Below are positions 984 to 48,217 of a stretch of DNA of 64,000 nt, piece after piece. Origin of the DNA: Acidimicrobiales bacterium. GTDB taxonomy: Bacteria; Actinomycetota; Acidimicrobiia; Acidimicrobiales; JACDCH01. The position numbers were made by a program, and so were the translations under genes. Where the stretch lies: assembly GCA_036493595.1 (NCBI GenBank), contig DASXPN010000067.1, positions 4 to 64,003 on the forward strand, read 5' to 3'. The notes beneath the pieces are model-generated. The model did no database searches. It saw nothing but the letters and a program-made list of their open reading frames with translations, and had not been told where the DNA came from. Each line of letters begins with the position of its first letter. Within the stretch, counting starts at the first letter, position 1.

Positions 984-1287
984 TAGGCGCTACTCGATCG
1001 AGAGGCGGGCGCTGCGCGGACGCGAGATTCTGTGCGCGTCGCTCCGACGCTATGGGCGCGGTTCTCCGACGGGGACATCACGGATCGCCGATTCGGTGCA
1101 TGAAAGCGGTCAGCAGGTCGCTCGGCCCGCGATCGACGGGGCCAAGGATCCGCAGAGCAGAAGCACCCGCGCCCGTTCCCTCACTCCGGCATGATCCAGC
1201 CGGGCTGCCACGGGACCCGACTCGCGGCCGGTCGGCGGCCTCCAAGCAAGCCGTGCGGTAACCGAACCGGCGCGGGCAGGCTCCTCT

Positions 1288-3228
1288 TTGATGATGACGC
1301 TGGTCGAGGATCGGGATCGTTGGGCGGCGCTCGTAGGCGCGGCTCAACGGGGCGATGTCAGTGCTTGGCCGGCGCTGATCGACCGCTTCGAGGACATCGC
1401 GGTCGCCTCAGCCGTGGGCCTGTGCGGCGATCTGGACGAGGCCATGGACATCGCTCAGGAAGCGTTCGTCCTGGCCTTTCGCCACATCGACGGCCTTCGG
1501 GACCCGGCTGCGTTCCCGGCCTGGCTGCTGCGGCTGGTCCGCACCGCGACCAACCGCAGGACCCGCCGCCGTCGACCCGTCGCCGTGCCGCTCGATGCCG
1601 TACCCGGCGCGAACCGGCCCGGTGCGCCGGCGGACGCGGCCGCCGGACCCGAGGAGGTCGTGCTCGCCGCCGTCGAGGCGGCCGAAGTGCGTGCCGCGGT
1701 CGAGCGCCTGCCGGAGGGCGAGCGGTGCGTGGTCGCGCTGCACCACCTGGCCGGAATGCCGTACGCGGAGGTCGCTGCCTTCCTCGGGATCACCGTCCCT
1801 GCTGCCAAGAAGCGGGCGTGGTCCGCCCGCACCCGATTGAAGGAGTTGCTCCCCATGGTCGCCGACGCCCTCGCCGCCGCCCGCCCGTCTGGTACCGAAG
1901 CGTTTCGGGACACCATCCTGCTGTTCCAGGCCCTCCGGACGCAGGACGCCGATGGGTTGGCCCGCCTCTTGGCCCGGAACCCCTTGCTGGCCGCCGCCAC
2001 CGAGGACTGGTCCCCGGCCGAGGGGTTCGAGTCGCGGCTCGGGTTCGCGGACCGGGCGACTGCGCTGATCCGCGCGGCCGGACTCGGCGACGTCCGGCTG
2101 GTACGCCTGCTGGTCGAGGCCGGTGCCCCAGTCGCTGACGCATGCCCGTGCGCCGGACACGAGAGCGCGCTGTGGGCGGCGGTCAACATCGGTGCCACCG
2201 ATGTCGTCGACTACCTGCTCGACAACGGCGCCTCCGTCGACGGCGGCGCGTTCGACGGCGAGGCCACCGCCCTCCACGTCGCCGTCTATCGCGAGCGCCA
2301 CGATCTCGTGCGCCGGCTGCTGGCGGCCGGGGCCGACCCGGCCGCGACCGACACACACGGCCGTACCGCCGCGGACTGGGGCGCCCTGAAAGCGACTCGC
2401 CGGGCTGAGGCGCCCGACGGCGATGTCCTCTGGACCCGCATCCGGGCCATCGACTTGTTCGCGCCACTGCGGCGAGGGGCTCTCGTGCACATCCCGCCCG
2501 CCTACGGGCTCGGCGCGATCAGAGCCGTGCTCGGCGTGGTCGACGCCCTCGCCCCCGCGCGTTGGTGGGTGATCGGGTTCGAGCACGGACCCTACGAACC
2601 GGTGGAGTTACAGCGGGACGCGCACGAGCGCGGCATGACGGCGACGGTCGATCTGATCGGGCCGGACGATCCCGGCGACCGACGTCGGCGGTTCGCCAAC
2701 TCGCTCGAGCGACTGGCCGCCACGCCCGGTCCCAAGGTCGTCACGTGCGTGCCCGCACCCGGGCACGAGCACGACGTCACCGTCGGTCTTCCCGGCCTCG
2801 CGGCTGATCCGTCGGTGCTGGCAACCGTCGTGCTGGCGACATACACGCCTGAGCCCGCGGCGGTGCCCGAGGCGCTCCCCGAGGGGTTCGACGCCCGCAT
2901 CACCTTCGACGGGGCCCGCGCCCGCGCTCGCCTCTGGCCCGCGATCGACCCAGACCGCACCAGCGCCCGGACCTACCCGGGCGAGCGCCACGAACACATC
3001 GCGCGCGCCGCTCGCGCCACCCTCGCCGGCTACGCCGCAGTCGACCCCACGTTCGCGCTTGCCGACCCGTCCGCGTTCGACGAGCCGGCTGCGGCCGAGC
3101 GGGCCCAGGCGCTCGTGCGTTACCTCGCCCATTCGTTCCGCGTGGTTGAGCTGTTCTGCGCGCTGCCGGCGGTCGAAACACCGATGGCCCAGGTCCTCGA
3201 CACCGTCGAGGACCTGCTCGGCCTTTGA
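1288..3228 (+). CDS. ECF (sigma-70 family) sigma factor fused to ankyrin repeats and a degenerate F1-ATPase beta-subunit-like domain
   Basis: Single uninterrupted 646-codon ORF. Residues 1-190 hold sigma region 2 (DIAQEAFVLAFRHIDGLRDPAAFPAWLLRLVRT) and region 4 HTH (ERCVVALHHLAGMPYAEVAAFLGITVPAAKKRAWSARTRL). Residues ~255-365 are three ankyrin-like repeats (TALIRAAGLGDVRLVRLLVEAGA; SALWAAVNIGATDVVDYLLDNGAS; TALHVAVYRERHDLVRRLLAAGADP). Residues ~380-646 are collinear with ATP synthase beta (IRAIDLFAPLRRG..; LWPAIDPDRTSAR vs GIYPAVDPLDSTSR; AERAQALVRYLAHSFRVVELF vs [20 protein letters not shown]), but the P-loop is replaced by PPAYGLGA. Confidence 0.8.
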   Translation: MMMTLVEDRDRWAALVGAAQRGDVSAWPALIDRFEDIAVASAVGLCGDLDEAMDIAQEAFVLAFRHIDGLRDPAAFPAWLLRLVRTATNRRTRRRRPVAVPLDAVPGANRPGAPADAAAGPEEVVLAAVEAAEVRAAVERLPEGERCVVALHHLAGMPYAEVAAFLGITVPAAKKRAWSARTRLKELLPMVADALAAARPSGTEAFRDTILLFQALRTQDADGLARLLARNPLLAAATEDWSPAEGFESRLGFADRATALIRAAGLGDVRLVRLLVEAGAPVADACPCAGHESALWAAVNIGATDVVDYLLDNGASVDGGAFDGEATALHVAVYRERHDLVRRLLAAGADPAATDTHGRTAADWGALKATRRAEAPDGDVLWTRIRAIDLFAPLRRGALVHIPPAYGLGAIRAVLGVVDALAPARWWVIGFEHGPYEPVELQRDAHERGMTATVDLIGPDDPGDRRRRFANSLERLAATPGPKVVTCVPAPGHEHDVTVGLPGLAADPSVLATVVLATYTPEPAAVPEALPEGFDARITFDGARARARLWPAIDPDRTSARTYPGERHEHIARAARATLAGYAAVDPTFALADPSAFDEPAAAERAQALVRYLAHSFRVVELFCALPAVETPMAQVLDTVEDLLGL

Positions 3229-3590
3229 CGTCCAGCCCTTCCTTGAGGTCGAGCTGGTCGGGTTAGGCCCGTTGCCCACGACCTGGCCGAGGTCGGAGTA
3301 CCAGAACACGTCACGCCGGTCGCACATGCGTCGTCGATGCAGACAAGCCACTCGTTCCTCGTCGCTCTCACGACCTGCTAAATCGACGGCTCTGTGGGCA
3401 ACCGGACGGCCGCCCACAACGACGCCGGGCACGCCGACAACGCGATCCCGACGCCAGCGATGTACGTGTCGATCGCGCGCACTTCGTGCGCGCACACGAT
3501 GAGCGAGGAAGCGTCCGGTACCGCTCGTCCCGCGATGCCACCAAACGCCGGTTACGCATCGAGTGGTTGCGTTCGTAGGCTCGCGAGTGG

Positions 3591-5615: not shown

Positions 5616-6578
5616 ATGGTTTCGAACCGCCCGACCGTCCGCACCACCCGCCGCCGCCTCCACTGCGTCGACTCGATCGCCGACGGCGCCGGCGATCTCC
5701 AGCTCCGGGCGAGTGCGCTCGACGAACACCTTCCTGCGCTGGTCACCCTGCTCGAGACCAACATCGCGCAGGAAGGCCTCGATCGGCCGCACCTCGTGCG
5801 CGTGGTCTCGACCAGCGTGACCGGCGACGGCATCGACGTCGGCATTCGACCGGTGGACGACGACGTCGACGGCGTGGTCGAGGCACTTGCGGGGTTCACC
5901 GCGCCGGCGAACTGGTTGGCGATCGGTGTGGCCGCCGGGGCCAACGCGTACGCGCTCGGCGACATCGGGGGCGAGCGTTCGCGCGCGCTGCTCGTGCATC
6001 TCGTGACGCGCAACGGCGAGTCGGCGTCGGTGCTGCGCATCGAGGGCGAGCAACCGCGCGTGCTGACGCCGGCCGATGCCGGGTCGACGAGCGGGCGGGT
6101 CGACGACGTCTGTCGCCGCGCTCTTGCCCTACCGACGCCGCCCCCTTCGAGCACGCTCGAGCTCTGGGCACTGGTCTGGCTCGACAACCTCCTGGCCGCG
6201 TCGGCCACCGGGGTCGAGTGCACGCCGCTGTCGTGGCGGAACGTGACCGCGCTGCATCCGGCCGTGTGCACCATCGTCGAATCGGAGCCGGAGCTCGGCG
6301 ACGAAGCATCGACACGCCTCGTCAGGTTGGGGCACCTGTACGCGAGCATCCACGACTGGTCGACGCTGCGCATCGCGTGCGGCAAGGGCGACTGGCCCGC
6401 CGGTGGGGTTTCGCCGCGCGTCGCGAAGTGGCTCGACGATGGCGCGTTCAGTCGTTGGGTGACCGGCAGCTACCCGCCGCTCGACGAGCTCGCGGGCGCG
6501 GTTTGCGAGCTGGTGTCCGCTGCCGTCGCGCGCCGCCTTCGGTCGACGTTGCGCGAGTGGGGTGTGGCGGAGGGGTGA
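5616..6578 (+). CDS. Hypothetical protein (320 aa), no recognisable domain
   Basis: ATG at 5616 preceded by GGGAGA. Balanced amino-acid composition, unlike the Arg/Pro-rich alternative frames. Confidence 0.5.
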   Translation: MVSNRPTVRTTRRRLHCVDSIADGAGDLQLRASALDEHLPALVTLLETNIAQEGLDRPHLVRVVSTSVTGDGIDVGIRPVDDDVDGVVEALAGFTAPANWLAIGVAAGANAYALGDIGGERSRALLVHLVTRNGESASVLRIEGEQPRVLTPADAGSTSGRVDDVCRRALALPTPPPSSTLELWALVWLDNLLAASATGVECTPLSWRNVTALHPAVCTIVESEPELGDEASTRLVRLGHLYASIHDWSTLRIACGKGDWPAGGVSPRVAKWLDDGAFSRWVTGSYPPLDELAGAVCELVSAAVARRLRSTLREWGVAEG

Positions 6579-6975: not shown

Positions 6976-8013
6976 TCAGGGTGGTGGCGGGAGCGACGCG
7001 CCCGGGCCGGATGCGAACTGCTGTGCCATCAGGTCGCGCGACGCCGTTGGGCTCGCGTTCCAGTCGTAGATCGAGCCACCGATGGCGTGGTCGTCGTACA
7101 ACGACTTCACGAAGTCGGTCAGCTCCGTCGCCGTGGCGGTGTCAGAGATGCCGCCGATGGCGTGCACGAGCGCGTTCGGATCACCGAGATCCGCCCGCAA
7201 CCGGCGCGTGCTCTCGTCGTTGTACGTGTAGCCGTCGTGGTAGCCCGATGACACGGTTCGAAACGTCCAGTAGCTCATCGGAAGCCAGACGTTGTAGAGC
7301 GGCGCCACCTCGGTCCACGGGAAGTCGGGCCAACGTGCCGGGTTCACGACCTCCGTGAGCACGGGCGGCAACACGATGGCACCGACTGCTTCGCTGCCGA
7401 CCGCCTCGCGCAGTCGCGTCGACAGATCGACGAGGCGTCGGTTGCGGTCGCCGGGGTCGGCCACCGTGTCGACGTCTTCGATGTCGACCGCGAGGCCGTC
7501 GAAGCGATGGCCGAGCACGTTGAACCGCTCGATGGCGAGCAGTCGCGAGAGGTCCGCGTCGACATCGGCGAACGTCGGCAGGTACCAACCGACGACCCGC
7601 ATGCCCCGAAGATGTGCACGCACGAGGAACTCGGCGAGGATCGCGCGATCGACGAGGCCGTCGGGCGACGTGCTGTCGGGCCGCGCCGCTTGGAGGAACA
7701 GCGTGTGCACACCGTGCGCAGCCATGTCGTCCACCGCGATGGCCGGCGTGAGCGGCGGCGCCGCCCCGGCCTTTTGATACTCGGGACTGAAGTCGAATGC
7801 GTCGACCCATGCCCCTTGACCCGAGTAGGCGCGGACGTCGCGGGTGGTCGGCCCGGTCGTCGCGACACGGCTGAGCACCGTCCCGACCGCCCCGCCCGGT
7901 GCGGCGCCGGCAGGGCGAGTGGCGCTGAACACGAGGACGCCGGCGACGAGGAGGAACGCCACTACGAGCGCGACCCGCACCCGCGAAGTTCGCAGTCGCG
8001 TCACCCGCGGCAC
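6976..8013 (-). CDS. Membrane-anchored or secreted TIM-barrel glycoside-hydrolase-like protein (GHL10/DUF4015-type)
   Basis: N-terminal RLRTSRVRVALVVAFLLVAGVLVFSA signal/anchor. Also GAWVDAFDF, HTLFLQAARPD, RGMRVVGWYLP and DGLAVDIED beta-strand-end motifs. GTG start at 8013 or 8004; the longer ORF to 8205 would overlap the divergent gene. Confidence 0.45.
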   Translation of the reverse strand: MPRVTRLRTSRVRVALVVAFLLVAGVLVFSATRPAGAAPGGAVGTVLSRVATTGPTTRDVRAYSGQGAWVDAFDFSPEYQKAGAAPPLTPAIAVDDMAAHGVHTLFLQAARPDSTSPDGLVDRAILAEFLVRAHLRGMRVVGWYLPTFADVDADLSRLLAIERFNVLGHRFDGLAVDIEDVDTVADPGDRNRRLVDLSTRLREAVGSEAVGAIVLPPVLTEVVNPARWPDFPWTEVAPLYNVWLPMSYWTFRTVSSGYHDGYTYNDESTRRLRADLGDPNALVHAIGGISDTATATELTDFVKSLYDDHAIGGSIYDWNASPTASRDLMAQQFASGPGASLPPPP

Positions 8014-8126
8014 CGTACTGGCGCCTGCCTGCCCATCGAGGGAACCCCTCGCCGCCCGGGACGAGTGGCGGGCCTCGTCACCCGTTGCCGGAAACCGAAC
8101 CCTCACGGCGGTAGATTCATCGCTTC

Positions 8127-9710
8127 GTGGGCGATCGCTCTCCCTCTGGTCCGCCCTCCCCCAGCCGGCGCCGCGTGCTGCTCGCGCTCGGCTTCGGAGC
8201 GGCAAACGCGGTGGCCCTCAGCCGTCTGGGCAAGCGCCGGTCCGTCGCCGCACCGAACGCCGCGAACTCGGGCGCCGGCCGCGTGTCCGCGACAGGACCG
8301 GCCACACCACCCGCACTCGACGGTGCCGCCCCAGAGCCGCCCGACAATCATCTCTACGACATCAACATCACCGGCGGCCGTGTGATCGACCCCGAGAGCG
8401 GCTTCGACAGGGTCGCCGACGTCGGCATCGACGGTTCCACGATCGTCGCGATCACCGACAAGAAGCTGCAGGCGCGCATGACCATCGATGCGAAGGATCG
8501 CATCGTCGCGCCCGGCTTCATCGACATGATCAGCTACGACCCGAACCCGTACGGGATCTGGTTCAAGATCGCCGACGGCGTCACCACCAACCTCGGCATG
8601 CACGGCATGTTGATGACGGCCGACCAGTTCTTCGGCACCTACGCCCAGCAGGGATCGCCATGCCATTACGGCGGTGCGTACGACAACTACTTCATGCGTG
8701 GCGTCGGCGGCCTCGAGATCGGCTCGGGCGAAGACGCGAGCGCGAAGCAGCTCGACCAGCTCGCGGCCGACATCGACGATCAACTGCATCAGGGCTGGCT
8801 CGGCGCGTCCTTCTCCCCTGAGTACAGCCCCGGGATGGCCGAGGACGAGATCACGCGCCAAGCGACCGTCGCCGCGAAGTACGGGCTGCCCTCGTTCTTC
8901 CACGGCCGCTACTCGACCGACGTCCCACCCGACGACAATGCCGCGACCTTGCAGGAGATCCTCGACGTGGCGCGCGCCAGCGGGAGCAGCGTGCACGTGA
9001 TGCACATCACGTCGACCGGAGGCACGTTCCAGATGCCGCAAGCACTCGACACCCTCGAGCAGGCCCGCAGCAACCAGATCGACGTCACCGCCTGCATGTA
9101 CCCGTACAACTTCTGGGCGACCTACATCCAGAGCGCGCGGTTCGGCGACGGATGGCAGCAGCGCTTCCACATCACCTACAGCGACCTCGTCGTCCCCGGC
9201 ACCGGCGAACGACTCACCGAGGCGCGCTTCAACGAGTTGCGCAGCGGCAGCAACAACACGCTGGTCGCCGCGTACGCGATCCCGGAGGGCGACGTCGTGA
9301 CAGGGTTGCAGTCGCCGACGACGATGATCGGCAGCGACGCCATCCTCACGACCGGCGACAACAACCACCCGCGCGGAGCCGGCTGCTTCACCCGGGTGCT
9401 CGGTCACTACGTGCGCGAGCAGCAGACGCTCTCACTGGTCGACGCGCTGGCCAAGATGACGATCCTGCCCGCCAAACGACTCGAGGCCAAGGCGCCCGCG
9501 CTGCAGAAGAAGGGTCGCTTGCAGCGCGGTGCGGACGCGGACATCACGATCTTCGATCCGGCCACGGTCGCCGACAGAGCCACTGTCGAGAACCCCGCGC
9601 AGGCGGCCGCCGGCGTGGACTACGTGCTCGTCGCGGGGACGATGGTCCTGTCGCCGGACGGCCTCGACAAGTCGAAGCTTCCCGGCCAGCCGATCAAGTC
9701 CGTGATCTGA
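8127..9710 (+). CDS. Tat-signal D-aminoacylase-like amidohydrolase (first metal motif degenerate)
   Basis: SRRRVLLALGFGAANAVA twin-arginine leader. ITGGRVIDPESG..VADVGIDGSTIVAI..IVAPGFIDMISYD N-terminal pattern and C-terminal GADADITIFDP. The HxH of the paralogs is replaced by MIS. Confidence 0.7.
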   Translation: MGDRSPSGPPSPSRRRVLLALGFGAANAVALSRLGKRRSVAAPNAANSGAGRVSATGPATPPALDGAAPEPPDNHLYDINITGGRVIDPESGFDRVADVGIDGSTIVAITDKKLQARMTIDAKDRIVAPGFIDMISYDPNPYGIWFKIADGVTTNLGMHGMLMTADQFFGTYAQQGSPCHYGGAYDNYFMRGVGGLEIGSGEDASAKQLDQLAADIDDQLHQGWLGASFSPEYSPGMAEDEITRQATVAAKYGLPSFFHGRYSTDVPPDDNAATLQEILDVARASGSSVHVMHITSTGGTFQMPQALDTLEQARSNQIDVTACMYPYNFWATYIQSARFGDGWQQRFHITYSDLVVPGTGERLTEARFNELRSGSNNTLVAAYAIPEGDVVTGLQSPTTMIGSDAILTTGDNNHPRGAGCFTRVLGHYVREQQTLSLVDALAKMTILPAKRLEAKAPALQKKGRLQRGADADITIFDPATVADRATVENPAQAAAGVDYVLVAGTMVLSPDGLDKSKLPGQPIKSVI

Positions 9711-11913: not shown

Positions 11914-14019
11914 GTGTTCGAGCTGACCGACGAACAGCAGGCGCTCGACGAATCAGTGGCGCGGCTGCTGGCGAAGACGTCCTCGCCCGACCAGGTGCGG
12001 GAGGCGGAGCTCGATGGCTTCTCGCCGGCGGTCTGGCGTGGTCTGGTCGACATGGGTCTGCTCGACGCGGCCGCGTCGCGCGACGCCAGCCTGTCCGACC
12101 TCGCCGTCGTCACGATGAGGACGGGCGCACAGCTCGCCGTGGTGCCCATCGTCGAAGCGCTGGTGGCGGCGCGCGCCGCGGGTCCCACCGGCGACCACGC
12201 CAGACGAGTCGCGGTGTTCACGCCGCGGCCGGTGCAGGACGGAGTGGCGACGTTGGTCGCGGGCGGCACGGTTGCCGCCGAGATCGTCGCTTGCGTGGGC
12301 GACCGGGTCATCGTCGCGGGCGTCGAGGTCGTGCGCGCGCACGCGAGCTTGGGTTCCACCGCGTTGGCGAGTGTCCGGCTCGTGGATCCGACGCCGATCG
12401 GCCACGCCGATGCCGGACGCGTGCTCGACGAATGGCGCGTGCTCACCGCGGCCGCGCTCGCCGGCCTGGCCCGAGCCGCACTCGACCTCGGTGTCGCGTA
12501 CGTGAAAGAGCGCCACCAGTTCGGCGTCCCGATCGGTTCGTTCCAGTCCATCCAACACCGGCTCGCCGACCTGTACACCGCGGTGGACGGCGCCCGCCTG
12601 TTCGCCCTCGAAGCCGCGGCCGCGCTCGACGACGGCGACGACGGCGGTGACGGACCCGCGCTGGCGGCGATGGCGCTCGACTGGTGCGGCCAGGTGGCCG
12701 AGGCCGCCGCCGCCGCCAGCCTGCACTTCCACGGTGGCTACGGGTTCATGCTCGAGTACGACGTCCAGCTGTACGTCCGCCGCGCCAAGGCATGGCGGCT
12801 CGCACTCGGCGATCCGCGGCGGCAGCGGCTCGAGACCGCCCGCCGGCTGTGGGGCAACGGCCGCAGCGGTCTACACCGACCACTCGATTCCTCGACCGAA
12901 TCGTTTCGCGCCGAGGTCCGTGCATTCCTCGGCGAACATCTCGACGACGAGATCCTCGAGCGTGCCCACGACACCGGCACCATGCACGACGCCCGGTTGC
13001 ATCGTGCGATTGCCGCTCGCGGATACCTCGCCGCGGGATGGCCCGAGGAGGTCGGCGGCCAGGGCCGCAGTGCCGTCGAGATGACCGCGCTGATGCAAGA
13101 GCTCTACGGGGCCGGCGCGCCCGTCGACAGCATGAGCATCGCGTCGATGGTCGCGGCCACGCTCTTGCTGCGGGGCACCGATCAGCAGCGCGGCGAGATC
13201 GTGCCGCGCATCCTGGCCGGCGATGCTCTGTGCTGCCTCGGCTACAGCGAGCCCGACGCCGGGTCCGACGTCGCCGCAGTGAAGACCCGCGCGGTGCGCG
13301 ACGGCGACGAGTGGGTGATCAACGGGCAGAAGATGTTCACGACCATGGCGCACGTCGCCGACTACGTGTTCCTGCTGACCCGCACGAGCCCCGAGAAACC
13401 GAAGCACAAGGGGCTGACGATGTTTCTCGTGCCGATGGATGCCGCCGGAATCGAGATCGCACCTGTCCACACCCTCGGCGGCGAGCGCACCAACATCACC
13501 TTCTACGCCGACGTGCGCGTTCCCGACTCGTGCCGGGTCGGTGACATGGACGCAGGTTGGTCGGTCATGCACGCGGCGCTCGTGTACGAGCGCAACAGCG
13601 CGAACTGGGGCGAGCCCGATCGCCTGGTGCGAGAAGTCGCGGCCTGGGCGACGTCGACCGGCGCGATCGACGATCCGCTGGTGGCCGAACGGCTCGCGGA
13701 GCACGCCACGGCGATGGAGGTCGGGCGGCTACTCCTCTACCGCATGGCGCAGGCCGCCGCGTCAGGCGCGATGACCGCGGTCGAGGGTTCGATGGCCAAG
13801 CTGTTCATCACCGAAGCGTTCACGCGCGCCGCGACCGACTTGCTCGACGTGCTCGGGGCTGCCGGCGTGCTGCCGCACGGCGACGACGACGCGCCGAATG
13901 CTGGGCTCGTCGAGCACGCCTTCCGGCACTCGACGGTGACCACCATCTACGGCGGGTCGAGCGAGGTGCAGCGCGGCATCATCGCCGAGCGCGGCCTCGG
14001 CCTCCCCCGCACGCGCTGA
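11914..14019 (+). CDS. Fused two-module acyl-CoA dehydrogenase (beta-like N-half, alpha-like C-half)
   Basis: 701 aa. The N-half resembles the short ACAD at 45154-46023 (LGVAYVKERHQFGVPIGSFQSIQHRLADL; HGGYGFMLEYDVQLYVRRAKAW). The C-half resembles the full ACAD at 46020-47156 (CLGYSEPDAGSDVAAVKTRAVRDGDEWVINGQKMFTT; TIYGGSSEVQRGIIAERGLGLPR). Confidence 0.8.
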   Translation: MFELTDEQQALDESVARLLAKTSSPDQVREAELDGFSPAVWRGLVDMGLLDAAASRDASLSDLAVVTMRTGAQLAVVPIVEALVAARAAGPTGDHARRVAVFTPRPVQDGVATLVAGGTVAAEIVACVGDRVIVAGVEVVRAHASLGSTALASVRLVDPTPIGHADAGRVLDEWRVLTAAALAGLARAALDLGVAYVKERHQFGVPIGSFQSIQHRLADLYTAVDGARLFALEAAAALDDGDDGGDGPALAAMALDWCGQVAEAAAAASLHFHGGYGFMLEYDVQLYVRRAKAWRLALGDPRRQRLETARRLWGNGRSGLHRPLDSSTESFRAEVRAFLGEHLDDEILERAHDTGTMHDARLHRAIAARGYLAAGWPEEVGGQGRSAVEMTALMQELYGAGAPVDSMSIASMVAATLLLRGTDQQRGEIVPRILAGDALCCLGYSEPDAGSDVAAVKTRAVRDGDEWVINGQKMFTTMAHVADYVFLLTRTSPEKPKHKGLTMFLVPMDAAGIEIAPVHTLGGERTNITFYADVRVPDSCRVGDMDAGWSVMHAALVYERNSANWGEPDRLVREVAAWATSTGAIDDPLVAERLAEHATAMEVGRLLLYRMAQAAASGAMTAVEGSMAKLFITEAFTRAATDLLDVLGAAGVLPHGDDDAPNAGLVEHAFRHSTVTTIYGGSSEVQRGIIAERGLGLPRTR

Positions 14020-46023: not shown

Positions 46024-47156
46024 CGTCTGGGCAACCCGAGTACGCGCTCCGCCGCGATGTTGCGCTGGATCTCGTTGGTGCCCGCATAGATCGGGCCGGA
46101 CAGCGAGAACTGGTAGCCCTTCGACCACGCGCCTTCGAGTTGGGCCTCTGGCCCGAGGACGTCCAGCGCGGTCTCGTGCAGCTCGACGTCGAGCTCGCTC
46201 CACCAGATCTTGTTGATCGACGACTCGGCCCCGACCGCGCCACCTTCGCTCAGCCGCGTCACCGTCTCCAAGGTGAACAACTGGTACGCCTCGGCCCGCA
46301 TCCATGTGTCGATCACGCGTCGACGAACGGACTCGACGGCGCCGCCTACCGTTGTTGCCGACCGGTACAGCTCGATCAGCCGAGCACTTGCGGCGAGGAA
46401 CCGTCCGGGCGAGCGCAGCGTGAGTCCTCGCTCCGACCCGGTCGTCGCCATCGCCACCGACCAGCCATCGTTCACCCCTCCGAGCACGTTGCCATCGGGC
46501 ACGAACGCGTCCTCGAAGAACACCTCGGCGAAGCCTTCGTCACCGTCGAGCCGGCCGAAGCCGCGCACCGTCACGCCCTGGGTGTCGAGGGGGACGAGCA
46601 AGTAGGTCAAGCCCTTGTGCCGCTCGCTGTCGGGATCCGAGCGGAAGAGGCCGAACAGGTGCGTGCAGAACGCGCCGCGCGTCGTCCACGTCTTCTGCCC
46701 GTTCAGCACCCAACCGCCGTCGACTTTGGTGGAGCGGCTCGTGATGCCGGCGAGGTCGCTGCCCGCATTCGGCTCCGACCATCCCTGGCACCACAGCTCG
46801 TCGGCCGCAGCCATGCGCCGGAGGATGCGCTCCTGCTGCTCGGGCGTGCCGAACTCGAACACGGTCGGCGCCAGCAGGAAGATGCCGTTCTGCGTGACGC
46901 GCTGAGGACCACCGGCGCGGTAGTACTCCTCCTCGAAGATCAACCACTCCCACAGCGACGCGCCGCGCCCGCCGTACTGCTCGGGCCACGACACGACCGC
47001 CCACCGGTTCTGGTACAGCAAGCGCTCCCATTCGACATGCCGGGCGAAGCCCTCGCGGGTGTCACCCGACGGCAGGTCGTGGGGAACGTTGGCGACGAGC
47101 CACGAGCGAGCCTCGGCGCGGAACGCGTCCTCGTCCGGCGACCACGTGAGATCCAT
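46020..47156 (-). CDS. Acyl-CoA dehydrogenase (alpha-type subunit)
   Basis: CQGWSEPNAGSDLAGITSRSTKVDGGWVLNGQKTWTT, IYAGTNEIQRNIAAERVLGLPR. TGATG junction with the upstream gene. Confidence 0.85.
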   Translation of the reverse strand: MDLTWSPDEDAFRAEARSWLVANVPHDLPSGDTREGFARHVEWERLLYQNRWAVVSWPEQYGGRGASLWEWLIFEEEYYRAGGPQRVTQNGIFLLAPTVFEFGTPEQQERILRRMAAADELWCQGWSEPNAGSDLAGITSRSTKVDGGWVLNGQKTWTTRGAFCTHLFGLFRSDPDSERHKGLTYLLVPLDTQGVTVRGFGRLDGDEGFAEVFFEDAFVPDGNVLGGVNDGWSVAMATTGSERGLTLRSPGRFLAASARLIELYRSATTVGGAVESVRRRVIDTWMRAEAYQLFTLETVTRLSEGGAVGAESSINKIWWSELDVELHETALDVLGPEAQLEGAWSKGYQFSLSGPIYAGTNEIQRNIAAERVLGLPRR

Positions 47157-48217
47157 CAGGACTCGAGTCGCTTCAGCACCGACTCCGCTTCCGTCATGAT
47201 GCGATCGAGCAGCTCTGCCACCGTCGGCAACTCGCCGATCACGCCGGTGACCTGGCCTGTCGGCAACACGCCCACGTCCGGGTTGCCGTCGACCATCGAT
47301 GCCTTGATCAACATCGGCGCGTTCGCGGCCAGCGCGACCTGGCTCCACGTCAGGTCCTGGTTGCGCTTCATCGCCAGACCCTCACGTACCAGGTCGCGGT
47401 ATGAAGTGGTCGTCTCCTTGCGGAAGCGCAGCGCGGCGCCCAGCGCGCGAGGCAAGCGGGTCAACTTCGACGACCGTTCGATGCGCTCGACGACATCAGT
47501 GCGGATGACGCGCTGCGGCGCCCCGTCGAGCGCGGTCGTGACGACGGTGTCGAACACGGTCGCGGCCATGTAACGGCCTTTCACGTTGTCCGGCACGCGG
47601 CTCTCCTGCGTCAGGAGGAAGCGGGTGCCCATGGCGATGCCGTCCGCTCCGTAGGCGAGCGCGGCGACGAGACCACGGCCGTCGTGGAACCCGCCCGCGC
47701 CCAACACGGGGATCGACGGGCCGACGGCGTCGACCACCTGCGGAAGCAGCAACGACGTGGGGACGGTCCCGGTGTGGCCGCCACCCTCGCCCCCCTGCGC
47801 GATGACCGCGTCGACGCCCCACTCGAGCATCTTCTCGGCGTGGCGCCTGGCGCCGACGGTCGGGATGCAGAGCGCACCGGCGTCGTGCAACCGCGCGATC
47901 GCGTCCTTGGTCGGCGCGCCCGCGAACGACACCACTCGCACGCCTTGCCCGATCACGAACGCCAGCCGGTCCGCGAGATCGGGTTGGTCGGCGCGGAAGT
48001 TCACACCGAAGGGCTTGCCGGTGCGCGCCTTCACGTCACGCACCGCATCCTCGAGTTGCGGCGGTGTCATCGTGACGGCGGCCAGGATGCCGAGACCGCC
48101 GGCCGCACTCGTCGCCGCCGTCAACCGGGCCCCCGAGACCCAGCCCATCCCGGTCTGCACGACCGGACGTTCGACGCCTGCGAGCTCGCAGAACCTTGTG
48201 TGGAGCGCGTGATGCAC
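47156..48217 (-). CDS. ipdC: Nitronate monooxygenase-family FMN enzyme (IpdC-like enoyl reductase)
   Basis: ERPVVQTGMGWVSGARL, AQGGEGGGHTG, GAGGFHDGRG. Position downstream of ipdAB-like genes mirrors the mycobacterial Rv3550-Rv3553 order. Confidence 0.65.
   Translation of the reverse strand: MHHALHTRFCELAGVERPVVQTGMGWVSGARLTAATSAAGGLGILAAVTMTPPQLEDAVRDVKARTGKPFGVNFRADQPDLADRLAFVIGQGVRVVSFAGAPTKDAIARLHDAGALCIPTVGARRHAEKMLEWGVDAVIAQGGEGGGHTGTVPTSLLLPQVVDAVGPSIPVLGAGGFHDGRGLVAALAYGADGIAMGTRFLLTQESRVPDNVKGRYMAATVFDTVVTTALDGAPQRVIRTDVVERIERSSKLTRLPRALGAALRFRKETTTSYRDLVREGLAMKRNQDLTWSQVALAANAPMLIKASMVDGNPDVGVLPTGQVTGVIGELPTVAELLDRIMTEAESVLKRLES

Follow-up and report, generated by a model that had tools for sequence, protein, structure and literature searches.

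The 64-kb window analyzed here (the whole stretch of 64,000 nucleotides from the Acidimicrobiales contig DASXPN010000067.1) contains a gene whose product almost certainly joins three parts in one polypeptide, namely an extracytoplasmic function (ECF) sigma factor, a set of ankyrin (ANK) repeats, and a C-terminal module derived from the beta subunit of F1 ATP synthase. Both its sequence and its fold show the C-terminal module to be truly homologous to two domains of F1 beta, the nucleotide-binding and the C-terminal one. The protein belongs to a widespread, multi-phylum family from uncultured soil Acidimicrobiia and Chloroflexota, which is not described in the literature that we searched. We consider it fairly probable that these proteins are one-component ECF sigma factors, in which an extension of ANK and beta-like parts takes the place of an anti-sigma factor.

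The gene lies in an uninterrupted open reading frame (ORF) at 1288..3228 on the forward strand, 646 codons long when counted from the TTG given in the window's ORF list. Judging from the starts of homologues and the position of the promoter, the true start is probably the ATG at 1291. The features of the gene and of its product are as follows.

1257..1263 (+): -35-like box GGTAACC, present at this position and with a spacer of exactly 15 nt in 38 of the 39 loci of the family
1279..1284 (+): -10-like box GGCTCC, with 6 nt between the box end and the start codon
1291..3228 (+): coding sequence of the sigma-ANK-beta-like protein; ATG 1291 lines up with the GTG or ATG start of homologues (TTG 1288 in the ORF list)
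1312..1575 (+): ECF sigma region 2, residues ~9-96 (Pfam; model helices at 9-94; match to 1or7)
1573..1656 (+): linker between sigma2 and sigma4, residues 96-123, predicted to be disordered (predicted local distance difference test, pLDDT, <50), mean identity 0.43
1657..1878 (+): ECF sigma region 4 with helix-turn-helix, residues ~124-197 (Pfam Sigma70_r4_2, model, 1or7)
1882..1914 (+): hinge between sigma4 and ANK, R199-P200-S201 / F206-R207-D208-T209 (family alignment; pLDDT <50 at 199-203)
1897..2394 (+): ankyrin-repeat domain, residues ~204-369 (Pfam repeats at 260-355; helix pairs in the model)
2143..2151 (+): C286-x-C288 loop within the ankyrin domain, conserved in the family alignment
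2410..2967 (+): F1-beta-like nucleotide-binding-domain remnant, residues ~375-560 (profile and fold matches; alpha/beta strand order kept in the model)
2494..2517 (+): degenerate Walker A, PPAYGLGA for GGAGVGKT, residues 403-410 (HMMER and MAFFT; P403, G407 and G409 invariant in the family)
2575..2589 (+): GFEHG for the catalytic GVGER, residues 430-434 (profile and MAFFT alignments)
2734..2781 (+): remnant of the Walker B strand, KVVTCVP, with Asp changed to Pro489; the clade-specific PGHEHDVT comes next (alignments)
2935..2952 (+): WPAIDP, counterpart of YPAVDP, residues 550-555 (alignments; one of only two motifs conserved across the superfamily)
2968..3225 (+): beta-like C-terminal helical domain, residues 561-646 (DPSAFDEP for DELSEED; RYLAHSF for RFLSQPF)

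Homology of the C-terminal Module to F1 Beta

The module comprises about 270 residues, and the first-pass annotation of this DNA, made from the sequence alone, had proposed that it is collinear with ATP synthase beta. The proposal is borne out by several independent searches. NCBIfam models gave weak but significant matches on the C-terminus (alternate F1 beta, 2.4e-8; atpD, 6.7e-5), and a phmmer search of the Protein Data Bank (PDB) with the single sequence returned ATP synthase beta chains only (best 4.9e-8), matched over two collinear stretches, one covering the P-loop region and the other the YPAVDP motif together with the C-terminal helical domain. With a family profile built from 27 members, the match to the PDB reached 4.7e-23, and 58 of the 60 sequences listed were F-type or F1-like beta chains, with type III secretion ATPases far weaker (1e-9 to 1e-6). 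The five motif alignments to beta on which the annotation relied were all reproduced by HMMER or MAFFT. It had also expected a match to the Pfam domain PF00006. No Pfam model matched the last 267 residues of the window protein, although ATP-synt_ab is above threshold in less degenerate relatives.

Structure prediction leads to the same conclusion. An AlphaFold model of the module alone was confident (pLDDT 88, predicted template modeling score, pTM, 0.86), and a Foldseek search of the PDB with it matched the F1-beta fold (E = 2e-13, query-normalized TM 0.64-0.75); a search with the full model gave E = 3e-9. In both searches the 50 matches listed were F1 or F1-like beta entries only. A form in which the beta-like part is a separate protein (P0291) scored 292 bits with the atpD model compared with 70 for atpA and ~105-110 for FliI and SctN (type III secretion ATPase), and because this split form favors the atpD model, we conclude that the module descends specifically from F-type beta.

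Loss of Catalytic Motifs and Remodeling of the Site

To map motifs, the module was aligned by MAFFT with genuine F1 beta from atpD loci and with its relatives. Both the replacement of Walker A GGAGVGKT by PPAYGLGA and the lack of conservation at Walker B, as annotated earlier, were recovered in these alignments, the former by HMMER as well. Since GGAGVGKT has become PPAYGLGA, the P-loop Lys and Thr are both gone; likewise, the catalytic Glu/Arg pair is gone, since GVGER has become GFEHG (GVGERxxE aligns with GFEHGPYE). The Walker B strand LLFID has become VTCVP, and its Asp aligns with Pro489. About 40 residues of the catalytic core had been reported missing. The loss is real, but its size is 26 residues directly after the Walker B strand (NIFRFxQAGSEVSALxGRxPSAVGYQPT in beta) and 5 more in the VYVPADDLTDPAP region. 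The N-terminal barrel of beta (~80 residues) is absent from the module, and the clade of the window protein also lacks the last ~35 residues of beta.

Judged by these motifs, the module is incapable of ATP hydrolysis by the beta mechanism, and its designation as a pseudo-ATPase can be extended to the whole family, across which the catalytic motifs are lost. No canonical GK[ST] was found in ~100 representative relatives and 26 further ones; some P-loop remnants keep the Lys (GVGKL/M/F), and others read GVGM, GVGR or GLGQ. The atpD model scored the window protein at 21.8 bits vs. a cut-off of 462.85. Other motifs of beta are kept, including IRAIDLFAPL (IKVIDLLAPY in beta), WPAIDP (YPAVDP), and RYLAHSF (RFLSQPF). 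In F1 structures, the Tyr of YPAVDP stacks on the adenine ring. The replacement motifs PPAYGLG, GFEHG and PGHxHD[VI]T are nearly invariant within the family, and therefore the site has been remodeled under selection rather than simply decayed.

Sigma Core, Hinge and Ankyrin Repeats

The N-terminus was confirmed as a complete ECF sigma factor. Pfam detected Sigma70_r2 at residues 31-96 (3.6e-8) and Sigma70_r4_2 at residues 133-183 (3.2e-10), the NCBIfam sigma70-ECF superfamily model TIGR02937 scored 56.2 bits vs. a cut-off of 42.9, and E. coli sigma-E (1or7) aligned end to end with the sigma core (4.5e-20, residues 13-184). Regions 2 and 4 are the only sigma regions that Pfam finds in the protein, regions 1.1 and 3 being absent, as in ECF (group 4) sigma factors. 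The best NCBIfam match, SigE-fam_strep, scored 75.5 bits, under its cut-off of 141.55.

The three ankyrin-like repeats of the first-pass annotation are likewise detectable by Pfam, as tandem repeats of ~33 residues that match Ank profiles (Ank_2 at residues 260-355, 76.6 bits vs. a cut-off of 27.3), and the AlphaFold model extends the helix pairs from about residue 204 to 369. In the AlphaFold2 model of the whole protein (mean pLDDT 83, pTM 0.69), disorder is predicted only at residues 96-123 and 199-203, i.e., in the linker between the two sigma domains and at the hinge that leads into the ankyrin repeats. In the hinge, R199, P200 and S201 are invariant in the family alignment and F206, R207, D208 and T209 nearly so; the motif RPS-x(4)-F recurs in distant relatives, both fused and split, with RPSHDQRFSRT in the split forms of Chloroflexota. 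Such conservation suggests that the RPS...FRDT hinge could be a docking, cleavage or phosphorylation site. The extension as a whole is conserved roughly as well as the sigma domains, with mean identities to the window protein of 0.72 (ANK) and 0.65 (beta-like) vs. 0.73 (sigma2) and 0.78 (sigma4), and 0.43 in the linker.

The Fusion Is Real and Conserved

Of the 182 clusters that a search with the full-length protein returned at E <= 1e-10, more than 90, counted as clusters at 90% identity, contain proteins of ~620-700 amino acids with Sigma70_r2, r4 and Ank at 96-100% query coverage and identities from 92% down to 49%, and the source names of these relatives point to metagenome-assembled genomes (MAGs) of Acidimicrobiia, Acidimicrobiales and Ilumatobacteraceae. 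When one genome per species was scanned, 35 loci were found, all in MAGs and nearly all in Acidimicrobiia, with an identical sigma-ANK-beta order in 35 of 35 as determined with a hidden Markov model for each part.

Therefore the three-part architecture that had been read from the window is real, and there is a negligible chance that separate genes lie behind the long ORF, whether joined in assembly or decaying as a pseudogene. Many database entries are indeed fragmentary, such as 457-aa "ankyrin" proteins that begin at an internal Met190, and the gene is frameshifted in several loci from long-read MAGs. However, different studies and types of sequencing have independently yielded more than 90 intact proteins, all three parts are strongly conserved, and one ORF spans the gene in loci whose assemblies name their contigs in short-read style (k-mer/NODE). 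In one of the frameshifted loci (L001), the "missing" sigma part is contiguous with the rest and merely shifted in frame within region 4. The DNA of this locus, the intact relatives and the locus scan effectively refute an artefact.

The 457-aa ANK-beta proteins without a sigma part, which made up most of the matches in the search with the C-terminal module, had suggested that sigma and ANK-beta are normally separate genes. We dropped this idea, since these gene calls begin at the internal Met190 (MVADALAA...), since in L001 the sigma part lies directly upstream and is joined via a single frameshift inside region 4, and since the full-length search yielded the intact fused proteins described above.

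Frameshifts were confined to some long-read "MFD" MAGs. One to several occur in "MFD" / ERZ250395xx loci (L001, L002, L003, L017, L018, L021, L023, and likewise L027-L029, L032, L033 and L041), and the fragments that result are entered as "ankyrin repeat protein", "hypothetical protein" or "F0F1-type ATP synthase beta subunit". Because the short-read-style loci are intact, homopolymer or assembly error in DNA of ~73% G+C is a likelier cause than pseudogenization. Some MAGs carry two paralogous copies on different contigs (L008 and L018 in MFD05442.bin.2.32; L014 and L023 in OTE_38_metabat_118).

Fused, Split and Ankyrin-Less Forms

Searching exhaustively over 1.8 billion representative proteins with a profile of the module gave 77 matches at E <= 1e-30 and 342 at E <= 1e-10. 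Many of the distant matches are proteins of 680-730 amino acids with the same architecture and a less degenerate beta-like part that Pfam recognizes as ATP-synt_ab above threshold, so that Pfam itself reads them as Sigma70_r2 + r4 + Ank + ATP-synt_ab. The architecture is kept where the beta-like module is only ~40% identical, and in Chloroflexota. For example, a search with P0265 found fused proteins in Chloroflexota MAGs (Anaerolineales, Caldilineaceae), where they are named "sigma-70 family sigma factor" or "F-type ATPase subunit beta".

Stand-alone beta-like proteins of ~350-365 amino acids are also among the matches, one of which clusters with a protein from a Herpetosiphonaceae MAG annotated as ATP synthase subunit beta. 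Three of the four stand-alone beta-like genes examined have a sigma-ANK or ANK gene directly upstream. In L043, a 369-aa sigma-ANK gene ends 14 nt ahead of the separate beta-like gene, and the gap is 14-16 nt in L043 and L125; the upstream gene is Sigma70_r2 + r4 + Ank in L125, and Ank, cut off by the contig end, in L126. A scan of metagenomes with the alignment of stand-alone beta-like proteins returned only genuine atpD genes.

Because the same modules occur either fused or adjacent, the sigma-ANK and beta-like parts would be expected to act together, and we take the pairing of fused and split forms as strong comparative evidence that they do. A cognate anti-sigma factor adjoins the sigma gene in most, although not all, ECF groups, and the position directly downstream of the sigma gene is the classic one for it. 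Since the split beta-like gene occupies this usual place of a sigma regulator, downstream of sigma-ANK, the idea that the module is a regulator is strengthened. The downstream protein itself had no zf-HC2 or RskA-type Pfam match.

A third architecture was also observed, in proteins of 528-547 amino acids in which an ECF sigma factor is joined directly to an ATP-synt_ab-like domain with no ankyrin (P0360, P0391, P0392 and P0394-P0396). The P-loop remnants in these proteins are more degenerate (AGEYRAGT, VGEARVGI).

A Conserved Promoter Ahead of the Gene

Aligning the DNA upstream of the start codon from 39 loci revealed GGTAACC-N15-GGCTCC in 38 of them, with a fixed spacer length and a variable spacer sequence; the sole exception is the error-prone L001, where the spacer is 14 nt. 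The GGCTCC box ends 6 nt ahead of GTG or ATG in most of the 39 loci. In the most distant loci the spacing is equal and the boxes vary (GGTCACC...GGATCC and GGTAACG...GGCTCT), as they do in L044 (GGTATCC...GGGTCC) and L043 (GGTAACC...GGGACT). In its form the promoter is ECF-like, with AAC inside the -35 box, a -10 box that is short and a spacer of constant length between them, and such a bipartite promoter ahead of its own gene is a further feature that the protein shares with ECF sigma factors.

Since the -10 box ends only 6 nt from the start codon, its position implies a leaderless or near-leaderless mRNA. The presence of the promoter at its own gene suggests, as the natural reading, that the sigma factor recognizes it and is autoregulated. 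No further perfect copy of the motif is present in the window, where a lone match with two mismatches is within chance expectation.

Proposed Mechanism and Alternatives

We hypothesize that the protein is a cytoplasmic, self-contained ("one-component") ECF sigma factor. Its sigma2-sigma4 core would direct RNA polymerase to GGTAACC-N15-GGCTCC promoters, including that of its own gene, resulting in positive autoregulation, probably from a leaderless transcript. The C-terminal ~450 residues, i.e., the ankyrin scaffold and the F1-beta-derived module, would stand in for a separate anti-sigma factor, holding the sigma core inactive or active and switching when a cytoplasmic ligand or partner binds to the beta-like domain; speculatively, the switch may exploit the open/closed motion of the beta fold at the hinge that joins its nucleotide-binding and C-terminal domains. 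Regulation by the ANK and beta-like unit would act in cis in the fused forms and in trans in the split forms. The protein has what is expected of one-component ECF sigma factors, that is, a conserved extension of more than 50 residues after sigma4 (~450 here) and no anti-sigma gene. ECF groups without an anti-sigma factor are typically governed by C-terminal extensions (PMC7826278; PMC8999054), and by analogy the regulatory reading would agree with the known or proposed roles of the extensions in ECF41, ECF42, ECF238 and ECF57 (PMC7826278; PMC8999054).

Several observations weigh against this model. The existence of sigma-beta-like fusions without ankyrin means that the ANK repeats are dispensable in some lineages. 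Upstream of the stand-alone beta-like gene of L127, the available 518 nt contain no sigma-ANK gene. Contact of the extension with sigma2 or sigma4 is so far hypothetical. Finally, neither the window (<=2 mismatches) nor 472 kb of related loci (<=1 mismatch) yielded the promoter a second time, and therefore the regulon is not adjacent to the gene.

What the beta-like module might sense can be framed in several ways. One version of the regulatory-extension model, which we regard as unlikely, is that it binds an adenine nucleotide without hydrolysis so that the sigma factor reads the ATP/ADP state. The adenine-pocket motif, with its aromatic residue kept (WPAIDP for YPAVDP), is among the two motifs conserved superfamily-wide, the alpha/beta core is predicted with high confidence, and some relatives keep the P-loop Lys (GVGKL/M/F); however, the clade of the window protein has none of the P-loop Lys/Thr, the GER Glu/Arg and the Walker B Asp, the 26-residue segment is deleted, and GK[ST] is present in 0 of >100 relatives. 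We would give no better a chance to the broader proposal that F1 beta was exapted as a class of sigma regulator, whose retained hinge motion, triggered by an adenine nucleotide or an F1 partner, frees or activates the sigma factor in cis when fused and in trans when split. If it were true, transcription would be wired directly to the cellular energy state or to the status of ATP synthase. Quite unlikely as well is a sensor role in which His and Cys residues conserved in the clade (PGHxHD, GFEHG and the C-x-C of the ankyrin loop) respond to a metal or to the redox state, for which the CorE-type ECF sigma factors would be a precedent. In the family alignment, H495 and C288 are invariant and D496, H493 and C286 are at least 90% conserved, the His and acidic residues would be placed by homology at the Mg-ATP site of beta, and in the ECF238 sigma factors, which respond to metals, control is exerted by CxC and Cys-rich extensions (PMC8999054). 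On the other hand, the motifs are not superfamily-wide, many relatives having GFExD in place of GHxHD, and the split forms of Chloroflexota have no CxC.

It is also conceivable, though distinctly improbable in our view, that the extension is not a sigma regulator and has a separate job, e.g., as a tether for the sigma factor or in bringing another protein to the transcription complex. As scaffolds for protein binding, ankyrin repeats are generic, many sigma-ANK proteins of ~413 amino acids have no fused beta-like part, and an intramolecular contact of sigma and extension is so far hypothetical. It is countered by the absence of an anti-sigma factor or other regulator encoded nearby in the contexts examined, and by the fused/split pattern, which resembles that of sigma/anti-sigma operons. 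A very remote prospect is that one of the genuine F1 partners alpha, gamma and epsilon binds to the module and couples transcription to the assembly or stoichiometry of ATP synthase. Its specific descent from F-type beta (the 292 bits of P0291 with atpD) and the DLSEED-like loop kept in the split form are consistent with such binding. However, it is through beta's N-terminal barrel that the alpha3beta3 ring of F1 stays together, and binding to F1 subunits is unlikely because both this barrel and the 26-residue segment after the Walker B strand are missing. Further, DELSEED is replaced by DPSAFDEP and the last ~35 residues are gone in the clade of the window protein, and the gene is never near atp genes in the contexts examined. 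Of the explanations considered, we therefore retain the one-component sigma factor with a built-in regulatory extension as our working model.

Comparison with Known Systems

The protein resembles ECF sigma factors that carry an extension at the C-terminus in having a sigma2-sigma4 core, a long cytoplasmic C-terminal domain, no anti-sigma factor and likely autoregulation. A repeat scaffold proposed for protein interaction is a further likeness, being TPR or WD40 in the known extended ECFs and ANK here (PMC7826278; PMC8999054). Unlike in those proteins, the ~450-residue extension consists of ankyrin repeats and an F1-beta-derived pseudo-ATPase, and it may split off as a downstream gene. The protein is not a member of ECF41 (SnoaL-like extension), ECF42 (TPR) or ECF238 (Cys-rich, ~20 amino acids), its extension having Ank, by Pfam, and an F1-beta-like part.

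With AtpD and the alternate N-ATPase beta, the protein shares the fold of the nucleotide-binding and C-terminal domains (at the query-normalized TM of 0.64-0.75 given above) and the collinear motifs IKxIDLxAP, YPAVDP and RFLSQPF. It differs from them in having no barrel, no Walker A Lys/Thr, no catalytic Glu/Arg and no Walker B Asp, as well as in its 26- and 5-residue deletions, its shorter C-terminus, its location outside an atp operon and its fusion to a sigma factor. Because four of the five defining features tested are lacking, the protein is not an AtpD. The Mycoplasma G1-ATPase / MMOB1670 and the F1-like beta MSC_0618, which are among the sequence and fold matches, are likewise derived from beta and have a role outside ATP synthases. 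In contrast to these, which by their names belong to multi-subunit ATPase complexes, the protein described here has no catalytic motifs, no barrel, and a sigma fusion.

The Chloroflexota-type arrangement, with the beta-like gene 14-16 nt downstream of sigma-ANK (L043, L125), is similar to a sigma/anti-sigma operon, except that the downstream protein is soluble, derived from a rotary ATPase, and without a known anti-sigma domain.

To the first-pass annotation, the architecture was not known as a described one. It is common in metagenomes and not confined to the window, yet it is not described in the literature searched, where we found no ankyrin or ATP-synthase-like sigma extension; the main texts of the ECF classification and review papers mention neither. 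A numbered group of the ECF Hub may already hold these proteins, with the homology to beta unnoticed.

No family of alternative sigma factors is larger than that of the ECF sigma factors, and the proteins described here would add a new input module for those without an anti-sigma factor, namely an F1-beta-derived pseudo-enzyme on ankyrin repeats. To our knowledge, the beta fold is otherwise known from rotary ATPases, export ATPases and Rho, so that its use as a catalytically dead regulatory domain would be a new one. The family is experimentally tractable, as it is abundant, offers fused and split forms as natural experiments, and has a sharply defined promoter motif. Its members are misnamed in databases, where "sigma-70 family sigma factor", "ankyrin repeat protein" and "F-type ATPase subunit beta" all stand for one family.

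Genomic Surroundings

In the window, the neighbors of the gene encode a RibD_C protein, a possible mycothiol-dependent enzyme, a methyltransferase, a glyoxalase fragment, an RNase H-like exonuclease, and unannotated ORFs. The earlier statement that no anti-sigma gene is adjacent holds for the window and can be extended to relatives, as no anti-sigma domain was found among the window neighbors or in the annotated contexts of relatives. These contexts differ from each other, and all-against-all clustering of the flanking ORFs of 40 loci found no family common beyond close sub-clades. There were no atp genes in the annotated contexts, in the ORFs beside the gene, or among ten large ORFs sampled in the window, which indicate that the rest of the window encodes ordinary catabolic enzymes. 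Scans for terminators, sigma-70-type promoters, Rfam families and tRNAs gave nothing, and there is no link to defense systems, since PADLOC gave generic ankyrin matches only.

The stretch containing the gene (window 1251-3250) has 73-75% G+C vs. 66-69% in the flanking 1-2 kb. This contrast may point to mobility when taken with the unconserved contexts and with the genes for integrases, transposases or a group II intron maturase that lie close to some copies (L002, L003); the G+C contrast may equally stem from a composition rich in Ala, Arg and Pro.

Genes of the kinase-like APH/phosphotransferase family PF01636 recur near the sigma gene in several otherwise unrelated contexts (L001, 6694-7488; L003, 5743-6561; L005, 2623-3480 and 4615-5586; L007, 2306-2866, 5840-6796, 8993-10045 and 15265-15917), and none lies within 8 kb of the sigma gene in the window. 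Their recurrence may be a coincidence in APH-rich Actinomycetota or a hint of control by phosphorylation.

Elsewhere in the window, three ORFs had no Pfam match (5616-6578 (+), 320 amino acids; 6976-8205 (-), 409 amino acids; 46140-47573 (+), 477 amino acids), and the first two had no NCBIfam or PADLOC match either; given the G+C-rich DNA, some of the three may not be genes. In a 701-aa ORF at 11914-14019 (+), the acyl-CoA dehydrogenase (ACAD) C-terminal domain precedes the N-terminal and middle domains; instead of coding for one protein, the ORF probably covers two ACAD genes side by side or has a wrongly extended start.

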